DNA of 64,000 nucleotides. Origin: a virus. A program made the translations under genes and the position numbers. Position 1 is the stretch's first letter, and each line of letters starts with the position of its first letter. The stretch spans positions 30,811 to 94,810 of the IMG/VR virus record IMGVR_UViG_3300037882_002640; one strand, given 5' to 3'. Below, in pieces: positions 11,204 to 62,925 of the stretch. The notes beneath the pieces are model-generated. The model did no database searches. It was not told where the DNA came from and saw only the letters and a program-made list of their open reading frames with translations.

Positions 11204-11455
11204 TTAACTATTCTCCACGCGATTTTGTGGACTCGGTCCATATATTCCGTTAGCTGTGGTTAGTAATAACAATACAAACGAGATGACTGTAAGGAATAGC
11301 AATACTCCTAAGTCTTCTTCGCAGTTGTATGTGGTACCGTAAAATGTAGAGGTTAGTCCACACTTACCTTTGGAACAGTCGTATAGATTGAGCGACAGGG
11401 ATACACATAATATAATCAGTGCTCCTGCCACTACTAATGCGAGTGCCCTTCTCAT
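11204..11455 (-). CDS. Small two-TM membrane protein
   Basis: Likely start MRRALAL at 11455 (ATGA overlap with the upstream stop); two hydrophobic helices. Confidence 0.6.
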   Translation of the reverse strand: MRRALALVVAGALIILCVSLSLNLYDCSKGKCGLTSTFYGTTYNCEEDLGVLLFLTVISFVLLLLTTANGIYGPSPQNRVENS

Positions 11456-11796
11456 AGTTTTCTTACTATTGTTTCGTATTCCTCTAGTTTTTTCAGTATC
11501 CACTCGTAAGTTCCAGCAAATACTTCAAACACAGGATAACCTTTTCTGTTAGTGTTAATTATCAGTATTGCTGGTAAGTTAGTGTAGGCGCTTGAAATGT
11601 TTAAACTTATGTTTATAGTGCGGGACTGTTCTGACTTATCATTGGTAATAGTTAACCTAGCAAGCTTTTTTTCTAAAGTCAGCCCCTTAATTTTCATGTC
11701 TTTGGCTAACTTTTCATAATCAATTTGGCGTATCCCCCCTGAAAAAATGACAACCCCAATGCCCACTTTAATCCACTTGTTACTATTTCTTTTCAT
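11452..11796 (-). CDS. Hypothetical protein, paralog of 11793-12143
   Basis: ATGA-coupled on both sides; shares the W.K.G, GL.LEK and LP.I.+I...RKG patterns with its neighbour. Confidence 0.7.
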   Translation of the reverse strand: MKRNSNKWIKVGIGVVIFSGGIRQIDYEKLAKDMKIKGLTLEKKLARLTITNDKSEQSRTINISLNISSAYTNLPAILIINTNRKGYPVFEVFAGTYEWILKKLEEYETIVRKL

Positions 11797-12143
11797 AATC
11801 TACGCAATTTTTGTTCAGTTAACTCCATGACATGTGCGACACTGCGCATAGTTCCATGCACTGCCTTGTATAATGATTGCCCTTTTCTAGTTACATCAAT
11901 AACTGCAATATCGGGCAACATGAAAGACCAGCCATTACTTCTAATTTTCATTACGCGAGGTTCGGCACCTTCCACCATCTTTTTCAGTTTTAGAGTATCC
12001 CCAATCTTTTCAAGAAGGAGCCCTCTTTTTTTAAGATCTTCGCAAAGTACAGCAAATTCAGCTTCACTTTCTATGGCTCCCCCCACTATGAGCAACCAAT
12101 TACCTATTTTGTACCATCTTTTGACTATAATTTTACCTTGCAT
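11793..12143 (-). CDS. Hypothetical protein, paralog of 11452-11796
   Basis: ORF in a tight operon, TGA stop in an ATGA overlap. Confidence 0.7.
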   Translation of the reverse strand: MQGKIIVKRWYKIGNWLLIVGGAIESEAEFAVLCEDLKKRGLLLEKIGDTLKLKKMVEGAEPRVMKIRSNGWSFMLPDIAVIDVTRKGQSLYKAVHGTMRSVAHVMELTEQKLRRL

Positions 12144-12516
12144 TATTAAGATGTTTTAAAATTAAGTTAACTAATTGTGTGTCTTTAGGCATACCATCAG
12201 GACTGAGGTTAGACTTAGGTAATTTCTTTCTAAGCCTACTAAGTATGATGTAATCTCTAAATTTCTTATCCCCCAATATGACTGAGCCTAAGGCATCTAA
12301 CTTCCCTTTCTCTTCCTCGTACACTACGATTTCCTCAGGAGATAATTCTATCTTACCAGCCTGATGTAGTATGAGGTACTTGGATGTTACTACTGGAGAT
12401 AGGTTTTGCTTCTCTAGTTCCTCTAAAAGTTTTCTATTGTTTGGATTAGACATTAGCCACACGTATGTGGCTAACAGTATAATGCACAAACTAAGTAAGG
12501 CTACTAGGGTTTTCAT
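12133..12516 (-). CDS. Hypothetical protein with N-terminal membrane anchor
   Basis: Hydrophobic N-terminus; overlapping operon arrangement. Confidence 0.65.
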   Translation of the reverse strand: MKTLVALLSLCIILLATYVWLMSNPNNRKLLEELEKQNLSPVVTSKYLILHQAGKIELSPEEIVVYEEEKGKLDALGSVILGDKKFRDYIILSRLRKKLPKSNLSPDGMPKDTQLVNLILKHLNNAR

Positions 12517-12743
12517 TAGAAGGGTAAAGGATTATCTGCCTCTTCATAATACTGAACGCCCCCACGAGTACCGCTGGGCAAAGATATAATGAAGTCTTGA
12601 TTTTTTGGAATCTCCATATCAGCAGCAGGTACAAGCGTTATCCGCTCATCTATGCTTTCTGGGTAGAATTCTTGGACTAACGCCCCTACAAATTTTCCAG
12701 TAAGGTCAAACAAATGACCTTCTTCGTTTAAATACAAATTCAT
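12516..12743 (-). CDS. Hypothetical protein
   Basis: Coupled to both neighbours; acidic C-terminus ending PLPF. Confidence 0.6.
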   Translation of the reverse strand: MNLYLNEEGHLFDLTGKFVGALVQEFYPESIDERITLVPAADMEIPKNQDFIISLPSGTRGGVQYYEEADNPLPF

Positions 12744-12940
12744 CTTTTTTTATCTTTGTTATGTATGGCGTGAAGGGCAGAATACCATACAAGTAGAACA
12801 AAAGTAACTACTAAAGTAAGGATTAACACCCCTGAACTTTTTATTAGTTTTATCACCCTTATAAACTCTTTTGAAGTTACAAAAGTTATAATCAAATTTA
12901 CAGTGATAAATATTAATATTAGTAGGACTAGCAGAATCAT
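12740..12940 (-). CDS. Small two-TM membrane protein
   Basis: Two hydrophobic helices and a basic tail. Confidence 0.6.
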   Translation of the reverse strand: MILLVLLILIFITVNLIITFVTSKEFIRVIKLIKSSGVLILTLVVTFVLLVWYSALHAIHNKDKKR

Positions 12941-12942
12941 AA

Positions 12943-13260
12943 TTAATATATATTTGATACTTCTTCTAGTAAATGGTTAATTAAATGCCTTCTAAAGACA
13001 AAGATGTTTTTAGAATCTAGGATTTCAGTAATCTCCTCAACGTGTAGCGCTATCCTCAGAGATACTGTATCGGGGCTACCATTAACTTTTATCGCCGTTA
13101 CATCAGCCATAAACTTGTTATGTAGGGATATAATTTGAGCGTTATAAGTTAATGCTCCTATGGCGGATAATTGTTTTTTTGGGGGTTTGCCTCTGTAGAA
13201 GGTCAAATAGCTCCAAACTATTATTAGCGCGAATATGATACTAATTATTGTTGTAATCAT
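12943..13260 (-). CDS. Membrane-anchored hypothetical protein, probable paralog of 13295-13591
   Basis: N-terminal TM; shared Y...I...H..FM..V...K..G pattern. Confidence 0.6.
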   Translation of the reverse strand: MITTIISIIFALIIVWSYLTFYRGKPPKKQLSAIGALTYNAQIISLHNKFMADVTAIKVNGSPDTVSLRIALHVEEITEILDSKNIFVFRRHLINHLLEEVSNIY

Positions 13261-13294
13261 TTTATTTCACTGATTAAATCCATTACGTAAATGG

Positions 13295-13591
13295 TTAGTT
13301 CTTTTTTTTTGATACCCAAGCGTTATTGATATATGTTTGTTCCCTAACATAATTAATATGGTAATCAGTAAGTGTAGGTATTTGATTACCATCACCACTA
13401 CGTTTGTATCTAGCCACACGGTTCATAAATATCCCATGTGCTTCTACTATAGAGGGGGTATACTTCAAAGCCTCTTCTGGGTCTAAAAATTTGCGCGACA
13501 TATTTATATCCAACGCCTTTACAAACTCATGTAGAAGGACTAATACTCCTAAGCCCATGAATGCAAGAAATACAATTTGTTTTGTGTCCAT
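13295..13591 (-). CDS. Membrane-anchored hypothetical protein
   Basis: N-terminal TM; similar to the downstream gene. Confidence 0.6.
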   Translation of the reverse strand: MDTKQIVFLAFMGLGVLVLLHEFVKALDINMSRKFLDPEEALKYTPSIVEAHGIFMNRVARYKRSGDGNQIPTLTDYHINYVREQTYINNAWVSKKKN

Positions 13592-13600: not shown

Positions 13601-13634
13601 AAAAAAGGGCCAGTACTTAAATGTACTGGCCCTA
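13601..13634 (-). terminator. Intrinsic terminator after the replication operon
   Basis: AGGGCCAGTAC / GTACTGGCCCT hairpin followed on the minus strand by a T run. Confidence 0.75.
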
Positions 13635-14093: not shown

Positions 14094-14547
14094 ATTTTTC
14101 TACTGTTAAATCAGGTATGCTCCAGACTTCTCCTGAAGGATTTAGTGTAATATCAACTCCCTTTAAAGCCCAGTACTCGACCATCGCAGGGTCTGCATCA
14201 AATATCAGCCTATTAGAGTATAGAGGATGGGTGGGGTTCCTAGGAAAGTGTTTGTCCACATAAGTCCTGTCGACTTGTGTGTATTTACCCTTAATAAAGG
14301 GTTCGACAACCTTCTTATAGTCACCCTCGCTTATAGTGAACGTATAAACGGCTTTTTCCCCGTCTCTCTGCATGTTGACGAATGTGGGGGCAGTAGAGAG
14401 TTTGTTATGTGTTTGTTCATCGAAAGTACTATATACTACCTGTAAGGTGTTACCCTCACCAATATAAGTATTTTCAAATGTTTCTGTGGTTAATCCACTA
14501 ACTCCAATGAGTGGAGTCAGGAAAGCTGATGTTTTATTGTACGCCAT
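14050..14547 (-). CDS. Hypothetical protein of the replication module
   Basis: 165-aa ORF overlapping both neighbours. Confidence 0.7.
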   Translation of the reverse strand: MAYNKTSAFLTPLIGVSGLTTETFENTYIGEGNTLQVVYSTFDEQTHNKLSTAPTFVNMQRDGEKAVYTFTISEGDYKKVVEPFIKGKYTQVDRTYVDKHFPRNPTHPLYSNRLIFDADPAMVEYWALKGVDITLNPSGEVWSIPDLTVEKYEFNGFTAWTQTST

Positions 14548-15547
14548 CGAACACGTCTAGTTTTATTACCCCTCCTGAATCGAAGAGATACTTGGGCATA
14601 TCCCAGTAGTCGTTACTGCTATGCCATAGGTAGTCGTCTAATAAGCCCTCTATACCTGGGTATGTCCTGGTGCCTATCTTTCCCCCCTTCAGACCAGCTA
14701 AACGATCGTTGGGGGAAGTGACGAATATTATTGCAGATCTTGTCGATTTCACATTTGTTTCTGCGACTATGAAAACAAAGTCGAGAAGTTTATATCCTTC
14801 CTCTAGTAAGTGCTTTATTGGGGACTGCCCACTGAGCAGCGCTTGCTCATAGAATGCACATTGTCTATAATATCCAAAGGAAAGGAAGGAATCTGGAAAA
14901 TCAAGCACAGATTTGCCTGTTGTCTTTAAATCAAAGGGCTGAATGGTTTTATCAATGTGATTAATTCTAATCCCATCTAATAAAGCTTTACATTCAACAC
15001 CTTTGAAGTCAAAATAAATATCCACCTGGTGCATTAATTCATCCCCATACTCTGACAGTTGAAAGTAACCAATTGTGGGGGGGTTTGATAGTAGTAGTTC
15101 TTTAGCTTTACTTACTGAAGCCATCATATCCTTGGTTAGGAGGATACGCTCATCCTTACTACGCACCTCGTTATAGTACGCTACAGCACTATGATCATTT
15201 CAGAACATCCCAATAACCCTTGTTAAGGAAATTTTATATCCCGATTTATTGTAGGCTTCTTCATAGTCTTCTTTTTGAGACATCGGGGATATACCTTCGG
15301 GTAAGGCGTTAACAAAATTAGCCATGAAGCTAGTCGGCTTTTCTATATCCACTACCCTAAAATCTTCCTCTCAACGCTCTGGTGAGGTTAGAAGACAATC
15401 CACTGCTGCGCCTACACTAAAGAAGGATTTCTCCTCTTCCACTATTACCCCATCCATCTGAAGTTTCATGTAGCGGGGATTTTGTAGCGCTGAGAGCAGG
15501 GAGTTTGATACCCTCTTGGTTTGGAAGTATTGTTTTATCTTGTCCAC
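14534..15547 (-). CDS. PD-(D/E)xK exonuclease-like protein (RecE/Cas4-like), with two in-frame TGA
   Basis: GTG start at 15547; in-frame TGA at 15371-15373 and 15200-15202. Motifs VSNSLL, GAAVDCLLT, CKALLD, FDLKTT, YYRQCAFY. Confidence 0.8.
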
Positions 15548-15914
15548 CTAGTTCTTTTATGATTTCTATACATTCGTCTAATTGTTTATTGTTCCTAGGC
15601 ATTAATAATGTATAAGGAGCACCTAAGGTGTGGAGCATATGTTTAAACAATTTCCACCTCAAATCGAAATCAGGGCGTCTATGCCCCTTTACCTCCATTA
15701 TCCAGTTACTACCCACAAAGTCTGGTTTATAGGTTATTGGCAAGACCAATTTCCTTTTCTTTACCAATTGCCTACCTCTTCCTTCGTAAACATCTCCTTC
15801 AAAACTGAACTGAGGCGAAAGAATTATACTCACAGGTTCGTAAGTAAAACTTATATTCGCCTCAGTCAGTTTGTCTCATGCCCTATCTTCCAAGGGGGAT
15901 CTCAATTTTTGCAT
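15417..15914 (-). CDS. Endonuclease I-like / Holliday junction resolvase (PD-(D/E)xK), with one in-frame TGA
   Basis: ATG at 15914; LRSPLEDRA*DKL...FTYEP, then YKPDF...MEVKG; TGA at 15876-15878. Confidence 0.75.
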
Positions 15915-16603
15915 TACTTTAATGACACTGGACCTCTTAGTGCCCCAGTATTTTCAATCTGCTCTACTGCTTCTTCTACCGCGTCCTCGACAATTACTTC
16001 TGCTATAGCCCCCACTATTCTATCTTCCATGGCGTTTTTTACAATGTATGGAATCAACTCTTTAGGCACTTCGCCTATTTCCAGAGTATTGGCATCCACC
16101 ACTGAGTACCCTCCATTCGGGGCTTTAGCAAGTACAACCACCGCTATTGCTAGGTCTAAAGCCCTGGCCACGCCCATAGCTGTTTTTGCAGCGTGCGGAT
16201 TCACTTGTTCGTGATTCACTACCCCATGTTTAACGTAGTTCGTAGGGTCGCCCAAGTACACTTTTCCTTGGGAAGCTGCTGCAGGACATACTGTGACAGA
16301 GGTTACGGTTTTAGGATTAACATTCGCCTGAATGATTGACCCTGGGGTTTCAGCGTGTTTACCAATGGAGGTTAACTTCTGTATGAAACCGCCTCCCATT
16401 TCGCCGATTTGACCACCTGCCATGATACGTGTACCATACCCACAATCAAGTGAATCTAATTCTCTCTCAGAGAAGGAGTTCCCGACAGGTAGATAACTTG
16501 GCACGTTGAAGCCAGTCTTCTTGGCCAACTCCATCAGCATCAATTTATCTTGTGTCAGTGCTTGGTCCTCTTCGAGGATGTTTAATAGATTTTGCATATG
16601 CAT
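15914..16603 (-). CDS. Hypothetical protein
   Basis: 229-aa ORF, TAATG-coupled to the endonuclease. Confidence 0.7.
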   Translation of the reverse strand: MHMQNLLNILEEDQALTQDKLMLMELAKKTGFNVPSYLPVGNSFSERELDSLDCGYGTRIMAGGQIGEMGGGFIQKLTSIGKHAETPGSIIQANVNPKTVTSVTVCPAAASQGKVYLGDPTNYVKHGVVNHEQVNPHAAKTAMGVARALDLAIAVVVLAKAPNGGYSVVDANTLEIGEVPKELIPYIVKNAMEDRIVGAIAEVIVEDAVEEAVEQIENTGALRGPVSLK

Positions 16604-16611
16604 ATTAACAG

Positions 16612-16905
16612 TTAAAATTTTAAAATTTCAAAATAAATCGTGTCCGCTATGGATTCTCCTTGGTCGTACCTGTAGTACTGCATGGAGTCCTGCATAATTT
16701 CTTGCACTACTATACGCCTATCGAAACGAGTGACCCCGAATTCTACCAGCGTATCCCTCACCACCTCTTCTCCCCTGTCAGAATGCTCTGTGTAAACTAT
16801 TGTTGTTTTTTGAGTGTACGTTGTGGGGTTAACAGCATGTACTAAAAGTGCAGTTAAAAAAGCAGTCACGATAATCACGATGATTGCGCTAATATGGGAC
16901 TTCAT
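16612..16905 (-). CDS. Exported or membrane-anchored hypothetical protein
   Basis: Hydrophobic N-terminus. Confidence 0.55.
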   Translation of the reverse strand: MKSHISAIIVIIVTAFLTALLVHAVNPTTYTQKTTIVYTEHSDRGEEVVRDTLVEFGVTRFDRRIVVQEIMQDSMQYYRYDQGESIADTIYFEILKF

Positions 16906-17893
16906 AGTTTGAATTTGTTGTTTTTAGCACTTTGGACAAGCGCTTTTTTAAGTAGCGAAATGAAAAGTGGCTTTTCCGCAATTTCACTAAATCTGATATG
17001 TCCTTCGCTGCATATAAGAACATTAGTTTTAAACGATATTCTCCGCTCAATCTGTGTCCATGCTTAAGACCGCTCTCATCGTTATCATACAACACTACGA
17101 TATGTTCAAACCTTTCTTTCAAATTGTTGAATAAATCCTCAAAAATCCCATCTCGATAGCCCATACCCTCTCCATTAAACGAAATCGCAGGAATCCCCAT
17201 TTCATAGAGAACCATCACATCCTTCATAGACTTTGTAACTATTAGAAGTTTGCCCTTTTTAGGGAGTTGCTGTAAACCAGCTATGTCGTCTATAGACGAA
17301 TTGCCTCTTCATTTCTTAGTCTTATCTGGACTCAATGGCCTATATAATTTGATTCTTCCTGATGGAAAGTAATAAGCAAAAATTGGATTGTCGGTAGTCG
17401 CTCGAAATTGTATTTTCTTATTTCTGTACACGCTCTGGACGCCATGTACATTAAACTTCTTTAGAGTCTCTGGCGTGATCCCAAACAGGGAAAAGTATGG
17501 GTGTAATTTTTCGGAAACTACTACATCAAGCTCCACATCCTCTTCCTCCAACTTGCTTACATTTACAGCCTTAATCAAGTTTCGATCTTCTCTTATTTTC
17601 TCCAACGCATGTGCATAAGTGAGGTTGTACTTGCACCGAACTATTGATGCCCACGAGTAGTGCACTCCAGTCGCAAAGTCATGAAAGAACAAGGTATCAT
17701 TTTTACTGTAGTAAAAACCGCAACTAGGATTATTATCTTTCCTTAGTGGATTGCGGAAAAGCACACCCAATTTTATCTCTAGACCTAAATAGAAGCTAAG
17801 AATTTGCTCCTGAGTTAAGTCCAGGTAGGTTTTGGTTGTTATTATTCAGTCTTTAGCTCTGAATTGTAGTGATTGGTTCGTATGGTTCGACAC
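16889..17893 (-). CDS. DNA primase (Zn-finger plus TOPRIM), with two in-frame TGA
   Basis: ORF-track pieces 17309-17770 and 16889-17227 share a frame and join through KK*RGN (TGA 17309-17311). A second TGA at 17846-17848 (AKD*II) follows a GTG at 17893, so the start is less certain. Motifs NPLRKDNNPSC, TKSMKDVM, YDNDESG. Confidence 0.85.
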
Positions 17894-18128
17894 TTGATTT
17901 TGTTATTTCTACTGTATTTAATCTCTTTGTTTCCATAAGATAACACTCAATTTGCCATATTGGGCAGATGTACGGGGACACTACTCGTATCCCCGTACCA
18001 CCTACTTTTTTGTTTAGACTGTTAACTCCTGAATAGGAGAACCTTACGACTACAAATTCATTGATTTGCTCTTGAACTACTTGTATTATCTCCTCGCTGT
18101 TCTTCTTTAAGAAATCTGATACTTTCAT
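17853..18128 (-). CDS. Hypothetical protein
   Basis: 91-aa ATG ORF in the operon. Confidence 0.55.
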   Translation of the reverse strand: MKVSDFLKKNSEEIIQVVQEQINEFVVVRFSYSGVNSLNKKVGGTGIRVVSPYICPIWQIECYLMETKRLNTVEITKSSVEPYEPITTIQS

Positions 18129-18283
18129 ATAGCGTGGCTATTGGTGGGTAGAATTTGCGGACATAAACATCCTTTCTATTCACCCTAGTGGAATGATGCA
18201 TTTTTAATACTAGAAACAGGAAAATTCCAGCTTCTCGTGTACTCAGCCCCAGACTTCTCATAGTTTCATTCCACACCTCAAGG

Positions 18284-18871
18284 TTAGAATGGGTGGTCAG
18301 GGGCTTCTTCTTTTTTACCGTCTGAGTTGCTACTTGCAATGTCTTTGAGTTCTTTTTGTGAAAAATTTAAAGTTGAGGGGACCCCTTCTGTGTACAATTC
18401 CATATACCCATTGTATGCTGGTATGTTAGCATACACAGTGGTTCCACCCTCTTTCTTTTTGGTTACTTTAGGTACAACCTTTAGATTTACCTTTGTCCCT
18501 TTAAAGCCGTTGGTTATAGTGATTGCTTTTTCTGCAAATTCCGTGTACGTTTTCGCGGTTAATTTGTCTATGCTCGCTTCGTCCCCTACTACACTTAGTA
18601 CGTAGGTCAGTGCGACCACATTTCTGTGTTGTTCCCGTTCAAGCGCTTCGGCGGGAGTTTCCATCACTTTATCAGCCTTCTCGAAAGGCATTGCGCCAGT
18701 TGGTTTGAACAACCGTTTACGCGCAAACCGTTTTTCTGTATCTATAAATGTGATATCTATGGAGTCTCCATCCTTTACCAGTCCGCTAAAGGTTACACCT
18801 TCGTGTATCCCTACTGGTATACTACCTACCGACGCTAGGTCGCTCTCGAAAATTAATTTTGCTTGAAACAT
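18284..18871 (-). CDS. Putative single-stranded DNA-binding protein
   Basis: Follows the Sak4-like ATPase; acidic tail ending EEAPDHPF. Function is inferred from context. Confidence 0.55.
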   Translation of the reverse strand: MFQAKLIFESDLASVGSIPVGIHEGVTFSGLVKDGDSIDITFIDTEKRFARKRLFKPTGAMPFEKADKVMETPAEALEREQHRNVVALTYVLSVVGDEASIDKLTAKTYTEFAEKAITITNGFKGTKVNLKVVPKVTKKKEGGTTVYANIPAYNGYMELYTEGVPSTLNFSQKELKDIASSNSDGKKEEAPDHPF

Positions 18872-18875
18872 TGTT

Positions 18876-19535
18876 TTATCCTTCTTTTTCTATAATTGTG
18901 TCCACAACGAACTTCAAGTCGTTGGGAATTCTTGGTGGGAATACTCCCATCACAGACCTAGCCTCATTTATTCCGTTAGAATTGGTCTGTAATTCATAAA
19001 GTGGCTCTCCAGCGTCAAAAGTTAGATCTGTATAGAGATTGTATGTGAGAAATGAATTCAGGTTAATCTTAGTGAGCTTCTTGCCATTAGTTTTTATCCT
19101 TAAGCATTGCGCACCATTCATCTCGTAAGCCTCTACATGAGACATTACGATTACTGTAAAATCTTCCCGACTCAAGTCTCTAATTGCTTTAAACAGATCA
19201 TAGACCTCGCTTGCTAAGTCAGCCCATTGGTCTCTTGATGGGTTCTTGAGTATCTCCATCTCTGCATTTGTCATTAAAGTAGAGATGGTGTCAATAACTA
19301 CTACCTTAACTTCTGGCACCTTATCATGGATACTCTTTACAAAAGTCTCAGCTTGCTTTGCAGTGCTGACCTTAAAGTAATTTTTATTTGCAGTATTGTA
19401 ATCTTTCTTTCACCCCACCCAAGCCATTCCTTTGCCATCGCCATCTAGGAATACTGTGCTTTTAGGATCTAACGTCATTACTCCTGTGGTCTTCCCTGTT
19501 GATGGGAATCCCGAAATCATTATTAATCTACTCAT
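18876..19535 (-). CDS. AAA_24/Sak4-like P-loop ATPase, with one in-frame TGA
   Basis: ATG at 19535; Walker A GFPSTGKT lies upstream of the TGA at 19410-19412 (MAWVG*KKDYN); Walker B VVVIDT lies downstream. Confidence 0.85.
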
Positions 19536-53035: not shown

Positions 53036-53052
53036 AAATAAACAGCAAAAAA

Positions 53053-53084
53053 TTCGTAGTTTCACTAAACTATTATTACCTTTG
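53053..53084 (+). promoter_or_regulatory. Bacteroidota-type promoter (TTCG-N20-TACCTTTG)
   Basis: Exact -7 match; the spacer shares GTTTCACT with the 50033 promoter. Confidence 0.65.
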
Positions 53085-54176: not shown

Positions 54177-54390
54177 CTTACCCTACTTTGGTAGACTCAC
54201 ACTTAATCCCGCCTCACTTAAGAAGATAATATCCCAAAAACTTCTACTCTACAAGTCCACTAGATCTCCCATCCTAAGAGATGAGATTCTACATCTAATA
54301 CAACTATACAAACAATCCACTTCTTACAAGAAATCTAAAAAATTCAAACTAAGATTTGGTAACTGGCACAATGGAAAAATACAAGAATAA
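54022..54390 (+). CDS. IHF/HU-like DNA-binding protein
   Basis: ISESTSVPLSTVEKIV...INLPYFGRL pattern; usual position in the crAss-like capsid module. Confidence 0.6.
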   Translation: MSRLLPTQTLLQITSKISESTSVPLSTVEKIVSQHYKWIQSHLNSPTVTKINLPYFGRLTLNPASLKKIISQKLLLYKSTRSPILRDEILHLIQLYKQSTSYKKSKKFKLRFGNWHNGKIQE

Positions 54391-54554
54391 ACCTAATTTA
54401 GACCTCCAAGCAGAGGCTATGCGTCATGAACTTCACTTACGCACTATACAAGTACTTGGCTCACTGATTACTCCCAATGCTCCACCCAAACTACTTAATA
54501 CTGTAGAGAGTACACTTCTATCCCTAATCCAACCATTTAATCAGCCTATACCCA

Positions 54555-54905
54555 ATGCTACTGAACTCTAATGTTCTTGTTCTCTTAGACAAAAAAGAAA
54601 CACACGATGAATCAAATATCATCGTACCACTCTACGAGGCTTTCACCACTGATGGTGGTAGACCTTCTGCAGAGATATCTAACAAGCAGTATCTACTTAA
54701 AGGAGTAGTTGTAGACTTTTCTCTCTCTGCTTTAAATAAACTTGAAGAAGATGGTATTACCCTCTCTAAAGGAGATAAAGTATTTGTACACCCATCTGCT
54801 ATATCTCAGCACTTCTTCTACTACCCCAATCGTGATAACTTGGTTATAGACTTTGATGGCCATGTTCTTATTCCATATACACTAATACAAAATGTTAATC
54901 CCTAA
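54555..54905 (+). CDS. GroES-like co-chaperonin
   Basis: NVLV...SNIIVP...KGVVV...LSKGDKVFV pattern; close to groEL. Confidence 0.55.
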   Translation: MLLNSNVLVLLDKKETHDESNIIVPLYEAFTTDGGRPSAEISNKQYLLKGVVVDFSLSALNKLEEDGITLSKGDKVFVHPSAISQHFFYYPNRDNLVIDFDGHVLIPYTLIQNVNP

Positions 54906-54906
54906 T

Positions 54907-55167
54907 ATGTCTGCTCAAAAAATTGAAACTCTAGAAGCTACTATAGCATCACAAACATCGCTCCTTATGCAGCGTGAAATCCAAGTTGATAAGCTCGCTA
55001 ATCTTGTCGCATCAATTGCTGTAAAGATTGATGAAACTAACCTTCCTAATAAGTTTACATTCTCTTATGTAGTATCTAATTGGAGGAAACTATCAGGATT
55101 GATTGCTGATATAGTTAAACTTATCAAGAATTACAAAGCGCAATTAAGTGTTCGATCTGACATCTAA
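54907..55167 (+). CDS. Hypothetical coiled-coil protein
   Basis: Likely start MSAQKIE. Confidence 0.55.
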   Translation: MSAQKIETLEATIASQTSLLMQREIQVDKLANLVASIAVKIDETNLPNKFTFSYVVSNWRKLSGLIADIVKLIKNYKAQLSVRSDI

Positions 55168-55618
55168 TTTCTTTGATAACTCTCAATACAGAGTTATATT
55201 TAAGGATGATATTAACACTCCATCAGAGGTAATGTGGGCTTTGATGTTGATATATCACCCTAAATCCGAGTATTACGAGATGCCTCTCTCCTCTAGGATT
55301 AACCTAGTTTTGAAGGATCAAGGAATATCAGGTTATGACATCACCACACACCAGTCAACAATAGATAAGATTCAGTTAATCTACCTTACTAAGACTCAGA
55401 TGTCCCTCTTTAACTGGGAGAAGAAGTTAGAGGAGAGAGATGCTTTCATAGCATCACATCCTTATGATGCTAATACATATGAGATGTTAGATAAACTTAT
55501 GTCTTCCACCCCTAAACTGTGGGATCAATTCTTTTCCTTACAGAAACAATTAGAGAAGGAAGAAGGTAAGACAAGAGGAGATATAGAAGAATCTTTAACT
55601 GATAAAAATATAATATAA
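55148..55618 (+). CDS. Hypothetical protein of the packaging module
   Basis: 156-aa ORF upstream of groEL and the terminase gene. Confidence 0.65.
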   Translation: MFDLTSNFFDNSQYRVIFKDDINTPSEVMWALMLIYHPKSEYYEMPLSSRINLVLKDQGISGYDITTHQSTIDKIQLIYLTKTQMSLFNWEKKLEERDAFIASHPYDANTYEMLDKLMSSTPKLWDQFFSLQKQLEKEEGKTRGDIEESLTDKNII

Positions 55619-55818
55619 TGGAATATAACGTAAATTTTGATTTTAACATCTCACTAAAGAGTGAAGAGGCAGTAACAGAGGTTCGTACTAAGATAGCACA
55701 AATTTTAGCAGACTATAACTGCGATAACTATCGCTACTCACAGTACACACGTAAAGAGGAAAAGTATTGTGGTGGCTGTCCTGCACAAGGCATAGAGCTT
55801 ACCGAAAAGAGTATCTAG
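55618..55818 (+). CDS. Small hypothetical protein
   Basis: TAATG-coupled; one CGGC motif. Confidence 0.55.
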   Translation: MEYNVNFDFNISLKSEEAVTEVRTKIAQILADYNCDNYRYSQYTRKEEKYCGGCPAQGIELTEKSI

Positions 55819-55858
55819 AAATAATGGGGGATGAAAGTCCCCCTTAACACATTATTAA

Positions 55859-57427
55859 ATGAAAAAAGTAATATTTAATCCCACTACAAGGGAACAACTC
55901 TTAGAAGGAGTTAAAACACTATCCGATGCTGTAGGCACAACCCTCGGACCTAAAGGCAATAATGTGGTTATCCAGAACTCTTTTGGCACTACTCTCGTCA
56001 CTAAAGATGGTGTGACTGTGGCTAAGAATATCGTGCTTGAAGATCCACTACAGAATATGGGTTGCGACATTATCAAACAAGCAGCTTCTAAGACCGCAGA
56101 CATCGCAGGTGACGGAACTACCACTGCAACTGTTTTAGCATATCATCTAGCTAAGAATGGTATGTATTTAGCTAAGAATGGGATATCTCCAATCAATATT
56201 AAACGGCAGTATGAACTCCTCTTACAAGAGGCTTTACTGTACCTACAGAAGGAGTCCAAAGCTGTAACACCTACAGATGTAATCAACATTGCTACCATCT
56301 CTGCAAATAACGATCCTGAACTTGGAAAGTTAATTGCTGAAGCTGTCTCTTATGCAAGCTCTTCTGGTTTAGTATCTGTAGAAGAATCCAAGACAGGTGA
56401 GACATACATTGATACTGTAGAGGGCTCAATCTTCGATAGAGGATTTGTTTCCCCCCTCTTTATTAATAACAATAAGAATACTGTAGTATTAGAAAACCCC
56501 ATCTTCCTTATTACTGATAAGAAGATTCGCACAGCTAATGAGATTGTCCCAGCAATGGAAATTGCATCTAAAGAAGGACGACCTTTGGTAGTTATTGCAG
56601 ATGAGATTGAAGCTCAAGCTCTCCAGTTACTTCTTATTAATAAGGTAAATGGACGTCTAAATTCAGTTGCCATTAAAGCTCCTGCATTTGGTAATCGTAG
56701 GCAAGAGATTCTAGAAGATTTATGTTCCCTAACATCCTCTACCTTAATTACTGAAAACCGAGGACTTAAACTTGAAGGAGTTACTGCTGAACATTTAGGT
56801 GAGGCTGGAAAGATTGTAGTTACCTCTGATGAGACTACCATTACTAAACCAGTGCATGCTTCCGATGTAGTTGACCGTATAGAAGGAATTAAGAGCAAAC
56901 TTAATGATAATCCTTCCTCTTACGATTTCGATAAGTTAACCGCTAGACTATCCCTACTACAAGGACAGGCTGCTGTTATACATGTTGGTGCTTTCACTGA
57001 GACTGAGATGTCTGAGAAAAAAGACAGAATTGATGATGCTCTTCGCGCTACAAGAGCAGCTTTAGAGAAAGGTTATGTAACTGGTGGTGGTTATACTCTT
57101 GTAAAGATTGCTAAACTACTTGGCCCAACTGACCCAGTTTCAGAAGCATTTATTGAAGCTTTGATTGCTCCAGCTTTACTGATACGATCTAATGCAGGTC
57201 AGACAGTTAGAGATATAATTGAGGAATACACTTTTAAAGGTGAATTTAATTCTCACACTATGGAGTTTAGTAATCTGCTGGAAGATGGAGTTATTGACCC
57301 CACACTTGTAACTGAGCAAGTGCTTAAAAATGCAGTATCTGCAGCTTGTATGATTCTTCTTTCAACAACAGCTGTTTACCCAATTGAGAAACCATACTCA
57401 CCTGGGAACTTAGAAGATTACCAATAA
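55859..57427 (+). CDS. groEL: Chaperonin GroEL
   Basis: TLGPKG, TKDGVTVA, AGDGTTTATVLA, KAPAFG, EKKDRIDDAL, GVIDP motifs. Confidence 0.95.
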   Translation: MKKVIFNPTTREQLLEGVKTLSDAVGTTLGPKGNNVVIQNSFGTTLVTKDGVTVAKNIVLEDPLQNMGCDIIKQAASKTADIAGDGTTTATVLAYHLAKNGMYLAKNGISPINIKRQYELLLQEALLYLQKESKAVTPTDVINIATISANNDPELGKLIAEAVSYASSSGLVSVEESKTGETYIDTVEGSIFDRGFVSPLFINNNKNTVVLENPIFLITDKKIRTANEIVPAMEIASKEGRPLVVIADEIEAQALQLLLINKVNGRLNSVAIKAPAFGNRRQEILEDLCSLTSSTLITENRGLKLEGVTAEHLGEAGKIVVTSDETTITKPVHASDVVDRIEGIKSKLNDNPSSYDFDKLTARLSLLQGQAAVIHVGAFTETEMSEKKDRIDDALRATRAALEKGYVTGGGYTLVKIAKLLGPTDPVSEAFIEALIAPALLIRSNAGQTVRDIIEEYTFKGEFNSHTMEFSNLLEDGVIDPTLVTEQVLKNAVSAACMILLSTTAVYPIEKPYSPGNLEDYQ

Positions 57428-59670
57428 TGATAATTAATCCAAAAAATTTTATACAGGAAATACCCTTGATACATCCACTTTCAAGGGAGTATATAGATTT
57501 TTGGAGAGAAGAAAAGAGGAAGTGTATAGAAGGTACCTGGGTTGGGGGCTATTATATGCCACCAGCCCTTTACTTTTATACAAACTATGCTACCATCAAA
57601 CTAAATAAATCTAGATTTGACTCTAGAAAAGTTTACTCAAGGCCCTACTTGCGTGACCTGGAATGGGATTTATTCCAAGCCTGGACTGCTTGTCAGGGCT
57701 TTTCTGGTTTCATGGATGACCCTGAGTACACCTCTCTAATCTATATTGATGATCCCTCTGAAGATTTAGAGGCGTTAAGGGTCTCCCTTCCCTATGTGTT
57801 TAAGGAAGATGGGACACCAAAGAGATACATCCCTGCTTTAGACTATTTAAAACTAAGGCATGATAAGCACTACAAATACCCACTATATCAAAACCCTTCA
57901 TATAATTTACTTATTGCTGGATCTCGTGATAGTGGAAAAAGTTACGCTGTTGGATGTGGATTCGTACTACACCAGTGGTTATTTGATGGTGCTTTGAAGT
58001 ATGATAGGAACACATTAGAAGATCCAAAGCAAGTTGATATAACTGTAGGAGCTGAAGGAGCTGAGAAATCAAAACTTATCATGGATAAGATTAAGGTTTC
58101 TTTAGAGATGTTACCTGGAAGCCAGGAGATAAACGGTAAGCACTACAAATCCCCCTTTAGTAAGCAGTATACTGGCTCATGGGCATTGGGTAAAGAGATA
58201 AAAGCGGAGTACCAAAAGAAGGTGGGTGGAGACTGGAAACCTCATGGTTCTCGCTCTATGCTAAAGCACCGCTCCTTCCGCGATAATCCCTTCGCTGACC
58301 AAGGCTCCCGTCCCACTACTATTGTTTTAGAAGAAGCAGGTCTATTCTCCAATTTAAAGGAAGTGTACCATAATACTAAGGACAACTTAGCTGATGGTTT
58401 AAAGAAGATTGGCTCGCTAGTAATGATGGGAACTGGAGGCGATATGGATAAAGGCACTATTGATATGGCAGATATGTTCTATAATCCTGCTGCATACTCC
58501 ATATTACCCTTCGAGGATAAGTGGGAGAATAAAGGGAAAATAGGGTATTTCATCCATACTGCCATGGTTCTTAATGAGTATTTAGATGATGACGGTCATA
58601 CAAGATGGGATATCGCTTTAAAGCATATACAAAAACAAAGAGAAGAAGCTAAGAAAAAATCCTCCTACGAGCTTAATAAGATAATGCAATATCGTCCTAT
58701 TAAGCCTTCTGAGATGTTCTTAGCTAAGACTGCTAACATATTCCCATCCCCTGAATTAAGGAGGAGATTATCCGAGATTACAACTGATAAGTTCTACGAA
58801 TCAAGTAGGTTAGTAGTTGATTTAATGTTTGACCCTAATTCCTACAATGGGGTTAAGTATGAAGTAAACCACTCTTTAGAGCCTATTGATACTTACCCTA
58901 CAAAAGATAATGCGGACCGTGAAGGAGCTGTTGTACTATACGAAGTTCCTAACTATGTAGATGGAAGGGTTCCAGAAGGAGCTTATATTATAGGATGTGA
59001 CCCATTTAAGGATGATTCTAGCACTGGAGGTTCGTTAGCCTCTATTTATGTAGTTAAGACTAATAAGTACCCACATATGGGTTATTCACAGATAGTAGCT
59101 TCCTATGTTGGCAGACCATATACTGGTAAGGCTGCAGTCAATGAGATACTACTAAAACTCTCCTTACTCTATGGTAATGCAAAGATTTACTTTGAGAATA
59201 ATGTGGGTAACGTGAAAGATTATTTCGAGAAAATTAGACGATTAGATTTACTTGCTTTACAGCCTACCACAGTCTTTAATAAGAAAGCAGCCTATAACAC
59301 CACTACACCTAATATATATGGTTACGCAATATCTAACGATAAAGTTAAGTGGGAAGCTCTTCAGTATCTACGTATGTGGCTATTGGAAGATAGGGAAAGT
59401 ACTGAAGATAATGTTACTCGTAACTTAGATTTGATTCCAGACCCTGGACTGCTCCAAGAGTTAATGAACTTTACTCTTGAGGGTAACTTCGATAGGGTCA
59501 TGTCATGTGTAGGATTTGTGTTGGGATTAGAGGAGCTGTATAACACCTCTAAAAGACGACAAGACTACGAGTCTAGCATATCTGAGATGGACAAAGAATT
59601 TGAAAAAGTGTTTACAAACAACAAAAAAATATTTAATGTGGGATTTACCAAAACAGAGACTCTCTTTTAA
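57427..59670 (+). CDS. terL: Terminase large subunit
   Basis: Walker A GSRDSGKS, Walker B IVLEEAG, GTGGDM, RNase H-like IGCDP, NFDRVM. Confidence 0.9.
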   Translation: MIINPKNFIQEIPLIHPLSREYIDFWREEKRKCIEGTWVGGYYMPPALYFYTNYATIKLNKSRFDSRKVYSRPYLRDLEWDLFQAWTACQGFSGFMDDPEYTSLIYIDDPSEDLEALRVSLPYVFKEDGTPKRYIPALDYLKLRHDKHYKYPLYQNPSYNLLIAGSRDSGKSYAVGCGFVLHQWLFDGALKYDRNTLEDPKQVDITVGAEGAEKSKLIMDKIKVSLEMLPGSQEINGKHYKSPFSKQYTGSWALGKEIKAEYQKKVGGDWKPHGSRSMLKHRSFRDNPFADQGSRPTTIVLEEAGLFSNLKEVYHNTKDNLADGLKKIGSLVMMGTGGDMDKGTIDMADMFYNPAAYSILPFEDKWENKGKIGYFIHTAMVLNEYLDDDGHTRWDIALKHIQKQREEAKKKSSYELNKIMQYRPIKPSEMFLAKTANIFPSPELRRRLSEITTDKFYESSRLVVDLMFDPNSYNGVKYEVNHSLEPIDTYPTKDNADREGAVVLYEVPNYVDGRVPEGAYIIGCDPFKDDSSTGGSLASIYVVKTNKYPHMGYSQIVASYVGRPYTGKAAVNEILLKLSLLYGNAKIYFENNVGNVKDYFEKIRRLDLLALQPTTVFNKKAAYNTTTPNIYGYAISNDKVKWEALQYLRMWLLEDRESTEDNVTRNLDLIPDPGLLQELMNFTLEGNFDRVMSCVGFVLGLEELYNTSKRRQDYESSISEMDKEFEKVFTNNKKIFNVGFTKTETLF

Positions 59671-61927
59671 AGAGAAGTCAAAAAACGATTTTGAGTGGGC
59701 TAAGAAGACAATTGACGCTATCATAGCCACATCTCCAGATCAAAACAAGGACATTCATAGAATGAAGTCCAACTACCAGCTGTATAACAATCAACTTAAC
59801 CAACAAGATTTCGAGAGGGAATGTAATCCTTTAAATATTGATGTTGGCCAGTTTAAAGATACAATACAGCCTTACAATAAGACATACAATAAGATTCAGG
59901 TACTACTATCTGAAGAACTATCTCGTCCCTTCGTGTTTAAGACTCTACTAGTTAACGCTGATGGGGTTAAATCTAAACTGATGTATCGGGACAATCTCCT
60001 AAAGACTTATATACAAAATAAGGTATCTAATACTATTAGGGGATTGTATGGAGAGCAGGCAGAGGAAGAGGGTATGATGCCTGAAGAAATTAATAAGTAC
60101 ATGAAGTATACTTTCCTGGATGCTAAGGAAGTTACTGCAAACAGGATAATGGAATACTTATGGAAGAAATTAAGTATAGATGGATTAAAGAATGAGTCCT
60201 TTAAACATGGACTAATCTCAGGAGTTGAGTTATGCTATGTAGGCAGAAAGGATGATGATCCTTATGTGTCTATATTAAATCCCTTAAACACCTTCTACTA
60301 TAAATCTGAGGAGACTCGTTATGTGCAGGATGGATTATATGCTGGGTATAGAACTACCTTATCTAACTATGAAATACTAGATAGGTATGGAATGTATCTT
60401 AGTGACGAGGATAAGAGGAGTTTAGAGGATAAATTCCCGACAGGTAACTATATTGGTAACGAGATGAAGTACCCTGAAGGGGTAAGACTGTATGATTACA
60501 ATACCTACCAGACATACACTGATGGTAACGATGAGGTAAGCTCCCAAACTGTTGTGCATGTAGAGTGGAGATCAGCTCGAAAGGTAGGATTCCTATCATG
60601 GGAAAATGAGTTTGGTGACCCTGAGCAAATGATAGTTTCAGAAGACACTGCTATACCCCCACATGCTGAGACTAAGATGGTGACTAAGAAATATGGTAGG
60701 AAATGTAAGTACTACTACTTTGATGGTTATTCCCTCTACTTTGACTATGTTCCAGAGATATGGACTGGTATAAAAATAGGTAGCGAGATTTATTGTAAGA
60801 TTGGACCAAAAGAGGATCAATTCAGATCTATGGACAACCCTTACGACGTTAAGTTAGGATACCATGGTATTGCTTATTCCTCTTTGAACGCACCTAACAT
60901 ATCCCTTATGGATAGAATGAAGCCATTCCAGTATCTATACTTCATTGTTATGCACAAACTTAAGAAGTTAATTGCTAGAGATGAAGGTATGGTATATAAG
61001 TTTGATTACTCAATGGTTGATCCTAAACTAGGTATTGAGAAGACACTATATTACATCAAAGAAATGGGTATAGATATCTATAACTCTTTACAGAACGCAG
61101 ACCAACCTGGAAGTGGCCAACGAGGAGTAGTAACTCAAGCAGTTAATATGTCTAATATGCAATATATTATGTCATATGTTAATCTACTTGCATCTATTGA
61201 CCAGCAGATTTCAGATGTAGCTGGTGTATCTCGACAGAAAGAAGGGCAAATGGTTGCTAATGAAGCAGTTGGCAATAACCAAGCAGCAATCCAGATGTCA
61301 TCTTTAGTAACTGAGATATACTTCCATATTCATTACTCTATGTGGGGTGAGGTACTGACCTCCCTATTGAATACAGCCTCATCTTGCTACCAAGGAAAGC
61401 ATGTTGTAAAGCAGTTTATATTGGACGATTTAAGCATTGGGAGTCTGGAAGTAAGCCCAGGCGATTTGATTAATTCTGATTTTGGAATATTTGTATCTTC
61501 CTCTATTAAGGATAACAATATGTTTAAGTCCTTACAAGGAATAGCAGCTGACTTGATTCGCTCAACAAGAGCATCATTCTCAGACTTGATTTCTCTGTAT
61601 ACTTCTACGTCTTCTGAGGAACTTAAGAATACTATAATTGCATCTGAAGAGAAAACTAATGCTCAAGCACAGCAATCTCAACAAGCACAGATTCAAGCTC
61701 AATTACAAGTAGAAGAATCCAAAAAACAAACTCAGCTGGAACTTGCCAATATCGCTGCTGAAACTAAAATTAAGGTTGCAGAAATTGGAAGTTTTGCTCG
61801 ACAGATGGACCAAGATGTGAACGATAATAATGTGCCAGACCAGCTAGAGTTGGAGAAATTAAGGGTCAATACTAGGCTAAAAGAAAGAGAGCTTGATATC
61901 AAAGAGAAAGCTTTAAATAAAAAATAG
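59636..61927 (+). CDS. Portal protein
   Basis: Start MWDLPKQR; about 760 aa between terminase and scaffold/capsid genes; SLMDRMKPFQYLY and AGVSRQKEG segments typical of crAss-like portals. Confidence 0.85.
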   Translation: MWDLPKQRLSFKEKSKNDFEWAKKTIDAIIATSPDQNKDIHRMKSNYQLYNNQLNQQDFERECNPLNIDVGQFKDTIQPYNKTYNKIQVLLSEELSRPFVFKTLLVNADGVKSKLMYRDNLLKTYIQNKVSNTIRGLYGEQAEEEGMMPEEINKYMKYTFLDAKEVTANRIMEYLWKKLSIDGLKNESFKHGLISGVELCYVGRKDDDPYVSILNPLNTFYYKSEETRYVQDGLYAGYRTTLSNYEILDRYGMYLSDEDKRSLEDKFPTGNYIGNEMKYPEGVRLYDYNTYQTYTDGNDEVSSQTVVHVEWRSARKVGFLSWENEFGDPEQMIVSEDTAIPPHAETKMVTKKYGRKCKYYYFDGYSLYFDYVPEIWTGIKIGSEIYCKIGPKEDQFRSMDNPYDVKLGYHGIAYSSLNAPNISLMDRMKPFQYLYFIVMHKLKKLIARDEGMVYKFDYSMVDPKLGIEKTLYYIKEMGIDIYNSLQNADQPGSGQRGVVTQAVNMSNMQYIMSYVNLLASIDQQISDVAGVSRQKEGQMVANEAVGNNQAAIQMSSLVTEIYFHIHYSMWGEVLTSLLNTASSCYQGKHVVKQFILDDLSIGSLEVSPGDLINSDFGIFVSSSIKDNNMFKSLQGIAADLIRSTRASFSDLISLYTSTSSEELKNTIIASEEKTNAQAQQSQQAQIQAQLQVEESKKQTQLELANIAAETKIKVAEIGSFARQMDQDVNDNNVPDQLELEKLRVNTRLKERELDIKEKALNKK

Positions 61928-61980
61928 GCTATACCCCATTTAGGTATAGTTAGATATAACAATTCATTAACAATAAATTT

Positions 61981-62925
61981 ATGGAAGAATTAGAAGATCT
62001 GTTCTCTACAGAGGTAGATAACGAAGATATTGATGGCGAGGGTACGGACCCTATTATAACAGATCCACCTGCTGAAGGTGGTGAGGGTACTGGTAAGGAA
62101 GAAGACCCAGTCGCTAAATATTTAGTAGAATTAGGCATATTAGATGAGGACGAAGACCTGTCTGATTTAGAGGTAGCTATAAAATCATCGAAAGATAAAG
62201 CAGATAACAAAGCTGTAGAGGCGCTACTCTCGAGATTACCAGAAGACTTTAAGCCTCTATTGGAATATGGTTTAAATGGTGGTGCTTCGCTTCAAGAATA
62301 CCTTCAAGCAAACGCACCAATTGATTACGATAAGTTAGACTTAGACGATGAGAATGTTCAGAACTCAGTCATGTTCAACTACTATAAGCAAACATCAAAA
62401 TACTCTGACGAGAAGATTGAAAAACTTATAGCAAGGTTGAAAGACGCAGATGCTCTAAAAGAGACTGCTGAGGAGACTGTAGCTGAACTCAAACAGATTC
62501 GTGAGGAAGCTAAAAGTAAGCTAATTGATGACCAGAAAAAACAACACGCTGATTATCTAAAGGAAGTAGCTAAAGAAACTGAAAGGTTTGAAAAATCTTT
62601 TGAGGAGTACAAAGCTCCTGCAGATAGGAAAGAGAAAATACAAAAAATGTTTACGGTAGGAAAAGATAACAAAGTTCCATTCAATGATACCATGAACACT
62701 ATACGCTCTAACTACGATCACCTCTTACAATTATCTGATTTACTTTTAGATTATGACCCTAAGAAAGGTTTCAACATGGATCGCTTTATAAAAAAAGCAC
62801 AAACAGAAAAGGTTAGTAATCTAAGAAATATTCTGGAAGAGAGGATTCAAAATTCAAAACCTGGTGGAGAGGGTCGACCCACCAAAGAAAATAACTTCGA
62901 CTTTGAAAAATTCATATCCCTATAA
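61981..62925 (+). CDS. Acidic scaffold-like protein upstream of the capsid gene
   Basis: Very acidic N-terminus and helical body; conserved position. Confidence 0.65.
   Translation: MEELEDLFSTEVDNEDIDGEGTDPIITDPPAEGGEGTGKEEDPVAKYLVELGILDEDEDLSDLEVAIKSSKDKADNKAVEALLSRLPEDFKPLLEYGLNGGASLQEYLQANAPIDYDKLDLDDENVQNSVMFNYYKQTSKYSDEKIEKLIARLKDADALKETAEETVAELKQIREEAKSKLIDDQKKQHADYLKEVAKETERFEKSFEEYKAPADRKEKIQKMFTVGKDNKVPFNDTMNTIRSNYDHLLQLSDLLLDYDPKKGFNMDRFIKKAQTEKVSNLRNILEERIQNSKPGGEGRPTKENNFDFEKFISL

Follow-up and report, generated by a model that had tools for sequence, protein, structure and literature searches.

A divergent crAss-like phage in which UGA is predicted to encode tryptophan in replication genes, ends flanking genes, and is avoided by plus-strand genes

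Introduction

Published surveys of phages that change the genetic code locate the recoded codons in late structural and lysis genes, with replication genes being standard, variably recoded, or dual-coded (PMC7886860; 10.1101/2021.08.26.457843; 10.1101/2022.06.29.495998). The models put forward to explain such recoding are temporal ones (Borges et al. preprint 10.1101/2021.08.26.457843; Mgcod preprint 10.1101/2022.06.29.495998), and the leading idea is that recoded stops hold back virion and lysis genes until late. Here we describe a crAss-like phage in which the partition is the reverse of this published pattern: TGA is predicted to encode tryptophan (Trp) in the replication genes, is a stop in flanking genes on the same strand, and is avoided in plus-strand genes. 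The stretch analyzed, called the window below, is 64,000 nucleotides long and comprises bases 30811 to 94810, two thirds of the genome, of one 94,810-bp IMG/VR virus record (IMGVR_UViG_3300037882_002640); coordinates are those of the window unless the genome is named. A full-text literature search turned up no account of recoding limited to replication genes.

Two further pieces of background bear on this phage. Replication modules and polymerases are often exchanged among crAss-like phages (Yutin et al. 2021, PMC7886860). According to PMC5289835, which cites Engelberg-Kulka 1981, tRNA-Trp is favored over termination when A follows UGA.

Results

Three uses of TGA in one genome

An initial annotation, made from the sequence alone, had proposed that TGA is sense, stop, and avoided in different parts of this genome. 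All three uses were borne out where it had placed them, with distributions far from chance, in the following blocks.

14534-28707, minus strand: replication module, TGA predicted to be Trp; about 18 to 20 genes annotated by Pfam and PHROG, every stop TAA or TAG; 14 TGA against 32 TGG
28709-49865, minus strand: upstream block of small genes, ATPases, lysozyme, and tRNAs; 0 internal TGA against 47 TGG
11204-13591, minus strand: distal small genes, in which the TGA stops at 12740, 11793, and 11452 belong to ATGA overlaps and TGA is never internal
50071-64000, plus strand: first part of the plus-strand block, with small genes, GroEL, TerL, and portal; stops all TAA or TAG, no in-frame TGA
1-11068, plus strand: end of the plus-strand block, with the tail of a 5264-amino-acid (aa) open reading frame (ORF) and a 1454-aa ORF; TGA neither sense nor stop

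When TGG, TGA, and stop codons were counted per block, TGA made up 14 of 46 Trp codons in the module. It made up none of the 47 upstream (49.9 to 28.7 kb), none of the 12 downstream (14.5 to 11.2 kb), and none of the 120 on the plus strand.

TGA aligns with tryptophan in replication genes

With TAA and TAG taken as the only stops, the minus-strand genes from 28.7 to 14.5 kb are intact. Twelve in-frame TGAs are confident (28588, 28183, 27623, 26824, 23511, 22998, 20798, 20374, 19410, 17309, 15371, and 15200), each lying well within a frame that scores as coding on either side, and four weaker ones (17846, 15876, 21333, and 16628) lie close to gene starts. These 12 to 16 sites are restricted to the minus-strand module at 14.5 to 28.7 kb. 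One or two TGAs are present in each of the six recognizable replication enzymes, and several genes of unknown function in the module also hold them.

25648-27495, minus strand: family A DNA polymerase (PolA) with 3′-5′ exonuclease domain (Pfam PF00476, PF01612); TGA at 26824-26826, residue 224
22533-23690, minus strand: SNF2/DEAD-type helicase (Pfam Helicase_C, ResIII, DEAD); TGAs at 23511-23513 and 22998-23000
19528-20526, minus strand: DnaB-like helicase (Pfam DnaB_C); TGA at 20374-20376, immediately after a TGG
18876-19535, minus strand: AAA_24 ATPase (Pfam PF13479); TGA at 19410-19412
16889-17893, minus strand: DNA primase (PHROG 12622); TGA at 17309-17311, and another at 17846-17848 that is possibly 5′ of the true start
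14534-15547, minus strand: exonuclease VIII-like protein (PHROG 412); TGAs at 15371-15373 and 15200-15202

Residue 224 of PolA falls in a column that is Trp in at least 90% of 20 sequences, and its codon is TGG in the relatives L094, L097, and L098. The same three relatives have TGG at site 195 of the primase, which is Trp in 32 of 45 relatives. At the AAA_24 ATPase site, L094 and L098 have TGG, and L095 and L097 have TGA; in the DnaB-like helicase L002, L003, and L098 carry TGA at the adjacent Trp column. Site 60 of the SNF2-type helicase is TGG in L094-L097; its site 231 is Tyr in relatives, and site 59 of the exonuclease VIII-like protein is Phe or Val. Several further TGA sites align mostly with Trp, or with Phe or Tyr, across 81 IMG/VR loci. 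At the codon level, five closer metagenomic relatives have TGG or TGA at 7 of 10 comparable sites. Because the TGA sites align with Trp columns and with TGG or TGA codons of relatives, TGA in the replication genes is predicted to encode Trp; the initial annotation had read it as sense from 15.2 to 28.6 kb.

Two other accounts of the interrupted frames were considered and rejected. Split genes or pseudogenes were ruled out, as the interruptions are all TGA, in frame, and Trp aligned, and the PolA site lies inside the conserved polymerase domain. Selenocysteine recoding was ruled out as well: the sites align with Trp, Phe, or Tyr and not with Cys, and there was no tRNA-Sec and no Rfam hit to a selenocysteine insertion sequence.

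The module also contains a 285-aa ORF (23690-24547, minus strand) lying between conserved replication genes. Its codon statistics resemble those of noncoding sequence (-0.016 per codon), it matches no family, and the related record G001 lacks a counterpart. It is outscored by an 85-codon ORF in another frame (23767-24024) that holds two TGAs. The 285-aa ORF may be an inserted or decaying element.

TGA is a stop in flanking minus-strand genes

Eleven flanking minus-strand genes end in TGA (42048, 41749, 41204, 39522, 38584, 38349, 32849, 29437, 12740, 11793, and 11452). All 11 TGAs lie 1 to 28 codons before the next TAA or TAG, an arrangement with a product P of 1.4e-13 under uniform placement. 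ATGA stop/start overlaps are present at 10 of the 11, including ones at 42048, 41204, and 38584 that were missing from the initial list, and these TGA stops are real. The eleventh is the lysozyme gene, whose TGA at 39522 had been described as preceding a terminator; a hairpin and T-run are indeed present at 39511-39488.

39522-40367, minus strand: phage lysozyme, endolysin-like (Pfam PF00959, 42.8 bits; PHROG 7, endolysin), with TGA stop
39488-39511, minus strand: intrinsic-terminator-like hairpin and T-run directly after the lysozyme TGA, with a second TGA in the loop

TGA stops thus end 11 of 41 flanking minus-strand genes, a frequency ordinary for this G+C content, against 0 of 18 module genes. 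Two TGA ends had been left ambiguous in the initial annotation. The one at 29437 behaves as a stop, and the one at 18058 belongs to an ORF that is probably not a gene; it was not counted because its coding signal is weak and it overlaps both neighbors. A tandem TGA-TAA is present at 48965-48970 (minus strand), at the end of a weakly coding small ORF, where it provides a back-up stop right after the TGA.

TGA is avoided in plus-strand genes

The avoidance of TGA noted for plus-strand genes of the window holds for all 36 plus-strand genes of the whole genome (about 17,900 codons), which end in 27 TAA and 9 TAG stops and no TGA. The difference from the flanking minus-strand genes (0/36 versus 11/41) is significant (Fisher p=5.6e-4), and the 16 small plus-strand genes at 50 to 55.8 kb alone give P=0.007 for the lack of a TGA stop. 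Plus-strand Trp codons are likewise all TGG (120 TGG, 0 TGA), with a chance near 1e-19 at the TGA share of the module. Off-frame TGA is common (counts of 193 and 663 in 14 large plus-strand genes); therefore the trinucleotide itself is not depleted and the gap is specific to the reading frame. Avoidance of TGA both as sense and as stop fits an ambiguous codon and is explained by neither a clean stop nor a clean sense codon.

Context, position, and transcription-unit signals

The base following the codon (+4) is A at 11 of 12 confident sense TGAs, compared with 9 of 32 TGG codons (p=3e-4); in the called gene set the figure is 13 of 14 sense TGAs against the same 9/32 (p=6e-5). The bias recurs in relatives, where +4 is A at 21 of 33 sense TGAs and 30 of 104 TGGs (p=7.5e-4). 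Across three genomes +4 is A at 21 of 25 sense and 9 of 23 stop TGAs (p=0.002), and a pyrimidine follows 1 of 25 sense and 8 of 23 stop TGAs. Position within the gene is biased too: all 12 confident sense TGAs lie within the first 60% of the gene, while 14 of 32 TGGs lie beyond that point (p=0.008). Such biases are expected if Trp insertion competes with release and are unexpected under clean reassignment.

The initial annotation had been puzzled that genes at 11 to 13 kb use TGA stops even though they lie downstream of the recoded module. This is partly resolved by a hairpin that separates the two.

13606-13633, minus strand: strong terminator-like hairpin of 11 pairs with a TTTTTATTTT tail; lies between the distal genes and the module with the two TAA-ending genes that follow it
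11085-11118, no strand assigned: bidirectional terminator-like hairpin at the junction of the two converging blocks

Because they lie beyond the hairpin at 13633-13606, the distal genes probably form a separate transcription unit. At the other end of the module, no terminator or gap was seen between the last TGA-stop gene (29437-29814) and the first TGA-sense gene (28420-28707). This TGA-stop gene is about 850 nt upstream of the first TGA-sense site, on the same strand, and the genes between are tightly packed. No shared promoter words were found in the minus-strand intergenic regions. A further hairpin at 45455-45486, among small upstream genes, resembles that at 11085-11118; both are long and form AAACCCCC...GGGGGTTT.

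The recoded module is shared by related phages

Five metagenomic relatives (L002, L003, L095, L097, and L098) have in-frame TGAs of their own, 21 of 33 of which align with Trp or TGA of this phage. Recoding of replication genes is therefore a trait of the clade and not of a single contig, and the relatives L094 and L004 look standard coded. In L095 and L097, stop-like and sense TGAs alternate on the same strand. The 35-kb record G001, a near-twin of L098, has upstream genes with only terminal TGAs followed by recoded replication genes; its only tRNA is tRNA-Met. This layout, with stop-using upstream genes and then a recoded module, is common to relatives at about 36% PolA identity. TGA and TGG swap freely between relatives.

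The closest relative found was L087:1-1847 (IMGVR_UViG_3300042455_000388), whose TerL is 78% identical. Its TerL gene ends in TGA exactly at the position of the TAA in this phage, with a TAA four codons on, so TGA is still a stop signal in the lineage. The other five late genes of L087 have no TGA.

A noncanonical tRNA is a candidate UGA decoder

Four tRNA-like genes lie at 42.9 to 47.7 kb, and tRNA-Met is the only canonical one.

43419-43493, minus strand: canonical tRNA-Met(CAU), with the same D arm and anticodon stem as the candidate decoder
44271-44350, minus strand: noncanonical tRNA, candidate UGA decoder; Infernal 52.2 bits, with an 8-for-2 loop insertion

Infernal places C-U-UCA-A in normal register in the anticodon loop of the 44271-44350 tRNA, followed by six extra loop bases. 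ARAGORN instead calls Leu-CAA, by way of two mismatched stem pairs. In the minimum-free-energy fold CUUCA pairs with UGGAG, and the arm forms a 10-pair helix that hides the anticodon. An in silico deletion of six bases leaves a canonical 74-nt tRNA(UCA) if made 3′ of the anticodon and tRNA(UGG) if made on its 5′ side. No homologues of this arm were found in IMG/VR.

Release-factor and tryptophanyl-tRNA synthetase (TrpRS) genes, a search proposed in the initial annotation, were not found: the phage yielded no release factor 1 (RF1), release factor 2 (RF2), or TrpRS gene, with no match to PF00472 or PF00579 and only subthreshold PF03462 matches within the large virion ORFs. The decoder would be either host tRNA-Trp or the phage-encoded candidate at 44271-44350. 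Interruption of a suppressor tRNA gene by a group I intron was ruled out (no intron hits, and only noise in the ARAGORN intron modes). A second, hidden UCA or CCA anticodon hairpin was ruled out by a genome-wide hairpin scan that gave only chance-like hits.

The remaining two tRNA-like genes are also unusual. That at 47614-47692 (minus strand, possibly extending to 47705; Rfam tRNA 34.5 bits) combines a perfectly paired acceptor stem and T arm with the anticodon loop CUUCUAA (UCU, Arg), lacks a D arm, and has a 22-nt variable region; ARAGORN matches it only at a lowered threshold, in a 93-nt form. The 85-nt gene at 42952-43036 (minus strand; 38.8 bits) has a long variable arm and an unusual anticodon loop, UUUUUUG, called Lys-UUU by ARAGORN, and its folding energy is no better than that of shuffled sequences (z=-1.4). 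Opposite the distal genes, a perfect hairpin at 13206-13222 (plus strand; AATAG-CTCCAAA-CTATT) copies the tRNA-Trp anticodon arm and may be due to chance. Two hammerhead ribozymes suggested earlier (48563-48630 and 48924-48995) had no Rfam match at E values up to 1 under permissive filters.

The phage, its layout, and its presumptive host

The record is classed as linear and about 95% complete. TerL (PHROG 6681) and portal (PHROG 6547) are both of crAss type. Among cultured phages, TerL is most similar to that of Cellulophaga phage phi14:2 (33% identity, with 96% of the protein aligned), and Flavobacterium and Bacteroides crAss-like phages come next. Crassvirales have a characteristic TerL and portal, giant virion proteins, and a genome of about 95 to 100 kb in two opposed gene blocks; likewise, this genome measures 94.8 kb and contains ORFs of 5264 and 1454 aa. 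The phage is a divergent crAss-like phage. A record search found no near-identical phage. The nearest PolA relatives are 54 to 56% identical, and a scan of GTDB genomes with the closest PolA (P0001) found no locus.

The two-block layout is usual for the order. The plus block runs from window position 50.0 kb across the contig ends to 11.07 kb and contains GroEL, TerL, portal, and the ORFs of 5264 and 1454 aa. The minus block, from 49.9 to 11.2 kb, contains small genes, tRNAs, lysozyme, and replication genes. The 5264-aa protein is encoded in a single plus-strand ORF (genome 21726-37520; window up to 6710) followed by the 1454-aa ORF; to judge by position, the two presumably correspond to the giant virion proteins that crAss-like phages typically have. 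A GroEL-type chaperonin gene (55859-57427, plus strand; PHROG 5725, E=6e-131) lies directly upstream of TerL. The host presumably uses the standard code and, from Crassvirales kinship, belongs to the Bacteroidota, and the TGA stops inside the phage genome argue for the presence of RF2.

Discussion

UGA as a proposed ambiguous codon

The partition of TGA and its Trp meaning stand. The order in which the initial annotation had arranged them (a stop early, suppressed in the middle phase, avoided late) cannot be read from the sequence, and it is weakened by the lack of a boundary between 29437-29814 and 28420-28707, by the interleaving in L095 and L097, and by the 5 of 11 stop TGAs that are followed by A. 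Its further suggestion, that suppression is partial or context dependent, fits the data best. In the reading we prefer, and to which we give about half of our confidence, UGA is ambiguous during infection: a Trp-inserting tRNA competes with host RF2, suppression is incomplete, and codon use has adapted gene by gene.

Under this reading, UGA would be read as Trp without full reassignment. Replication enzymes, needed in small amounts, could tolerate one or two UGA-Trp codons or use them as a gate, and these sites would sit in the context of highest suppression efficiency (UGA followed by A) and within the first 60% of the gene, where failure to read the codon costs least. The lysozyme gene and small accessory genes could retain UGA as a stop, as read-through would add just 1 to 28 residues until a TAA or TAG is reached. 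Plus-strand (virion) genes with abundant or giant products would shun UGA, since truncation and read-through would both be unaffordable. We infer competition with RF2 together with selection by expression level.

Several points weigh against an ambiguous UGA. A is at +4 in 5 of 11 stop TGAs as well, and therefore context alone cannot separate the two meanings. The free swapping of TGA and TGG between relatives looks nearly neutral, which speaks for suppression that is efficient, not weak, during the replication phase. Genes ending in TGA do not have significantly nearer back-up stops than the rest (p=0.08). In the phage, no canonical suppressor tRNA, RF1, or TrpRS gene was found, and any means of suppression is putative. 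Avoidance of TGA in virion genes of relatives was checked only on one 8-kb fragment (L087), and expression levels and timing are inferred only from the crAss-like gene layout.

A bolder form of the ambiguous-UGA reading is tentative, and we hold it to be possible rather than probable. Within a single infected cell UGA would carry two meanings at once: UGA-A sites in the early part of replication genes would be read as Trp, and UGA elsewhere as a stop. The decoder would be a phage tRNA that masks itself, its UCA anticodon held in base pairs with a UGG-like segment of the same molecule until unmasking or processing frees it. The ambiguity would throttle or time the replisome, not lysis, and would be conserved in an environmental crAss-like clade.

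Alternative explanations

A clean temporal switch is conceivable but on balance unlikely. UGA would be a stop for the upstream and distal genes, a phage decoder would then make it Trp for replication, and late genes would avoid it in a cell of uncertain or mixed state. The tRNA cluster at 42.9 to 47.7 kb does lie upstream of both the TGA-stop genes and the recoded module, the distal TGA-stop genes are behind a terminator, the near-neutral turnover of TGA and TGG suggests efficient suppression at the replication stage, and the published models are temporal (Borges preprint, Mgcod preprint). Yet no terminator, gap, or promoter signal separates the TGA-stop genes at 29 to 39 kb from the module, and the +4 A and 5′-position biases are unexpected without competition from RF2. 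The late genes are difficult for a switch in either direction: if suppression were efficient late, sense TGA should drift into them (0/120 seen), and if it were off, TGA stops should return (0/36 seen).

Natural UGA read-through is exemplified by the A1 protein of phage Qbeta. It is conceivable that there is no phage decoder at all, and that low-level misreading of UGA-A by host tRNA-Trp(CCA), of the kind that yields this Qbeta protein, deliberately throttles the replication genes. We consider this improbable. The 11 of 12 sense sites that are UGA-A have the misreading context reported for tRNA-Trp in the part of the literature cited above, the inserted residue is Trp by alignment, no canonical suppressor, release-factor, or TrpRS gene was found in the phage, and the 35-kb sister record G001 has tRNA-Met only. 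With two TGAs per gene in the helicase and the exonuclease, however, the yield would be the square of a few percent. A cost of 20- to 100-fold per site is hard to square with TGA at 30% of Trp codons and with the turnover of sites, and the avoidance of TGA stops in late genes would go unexplained.

A historical mosaic seems to us quite improbable. The module would have arisen in a lineage with complete TGA=Trp coding, or been acquired from one, drifting under a suppressor while the rest of the genome keeps older habits. Exchange of replication modules and polymerases is frequent in crAss-like phages (Yutin 2021), and TGA positions vary among relatives in the manner of silent sites. But the layout is shared at about 36% PolA identity and is therefore old and maintained, and continued selection is indicated by the complete absence of TGA stops from 36 plus-strand genes together with the biases in context and position.

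Finally, a code 4 or code 25 host, or a chimeric assembly, in which the apparent TGA stops would not be stops, has nothing to recommend it beyond the sense TGAs themselves and is highly improbable, being contradicted by the confinement of 11 TGAs to ORF ends (P=1.4e-13), ten ATGA overlaps and one TGA before a terminator, the lack of TGA among 120 late Trp codons, TerL relatives that are phages of Bacteroidota, and same-strand TGA-stop genes on both sides of the module in a layout that recurs in G001, L095, and L097.

Significance

In this phage and at least five relatives, recoded codons are found only in the replication machinery, which argues that recoding is not tied to lysis timing. An ambiguously decoded UGA would be a natural case in which ambiguity has left its marks in sequence, as +4 context, gene position, and avoidance in abundant proteins. 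Gene callers that assume one code per genome or per strand will misannotate such phages. The odd tRNA at 44271-44350 is a candidate for the "extremely divergent suppressors" suspected but unfound in earlier surveys.

Comparison with known systems

The closest described systems are the TGA-to-Trp phages of standard-code hosts (crAss-like beta, delta, and zeta groups, Agate, and Jade). They share with this phage crAss-like kinship, Trp-aligned in-frame TGAs, and recoding of part of the genome, as well as one block compatible with both codes and a partition largely by coding strand. A recognizable suppressor tRNA is commonly missing from such genomes too. Here, in contrast, the replication genes are recoded, the virion block is dual compatible, the lysozyme gene ends in TGA, and two codes lie on one strand with no visible boundary. 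The code-change helpers of Jade phages (RF1, TrpRS) were not found in this genome. TGA=Trp in DNA-processing genes (helicase, RNA polymerase, PolB) has precedents in the zeta-group phage Lera (PMC12386605) and in the PolB of OLWB01000021 (Yutin 2021). In Lera, however, TGA-containing genes are mostly structural, and TerL, holin, and three lysin genes hold TGA (PMC12386605), whereas no virion or lysis gene does so here. Lera also has canonical Sup-TCA and Sup-CTA tRNAs, while the only candidate tRNA here is noncanonical.

Natural UGA read-through by tRNA-Trp, as PMC5289835 describes it in citing Engelberg-Kulka 1981, shares with this phage Trp insertion, a preference for A at +4, and, on the reading we prefer, competition with RF2. 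By the pattern that defines programmed read-through, UGA followed by A and read as Trp, 11 of 12 sense sites here are UGA-A, with Trp assigned by alignment. Known cases are single sites giving a minor extended isoform, whereas here 12 to 16 sites lie inside essential enzymes and the main product depends on them.

Position-dependent codons, sense inside genes and stop at their ends, occur in Condylostoma (a ciliate) and Blastocrithidia (a trypanosomatid). Those systems are eukaryotic and genome-wide, with termination tied to 3′-end proximity, whereas the meaning of TGA here goes by gene module and includes a third, avoiding class. Rare-codon gating by a dedicated tRNA is known from bldA and TTA in Streptomyces. 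The two systems are alike in that a few genes depend on one special tRNA and the codon could gate translation; TTA, however, is an ordinary sense codon that faces no release-factor competition.

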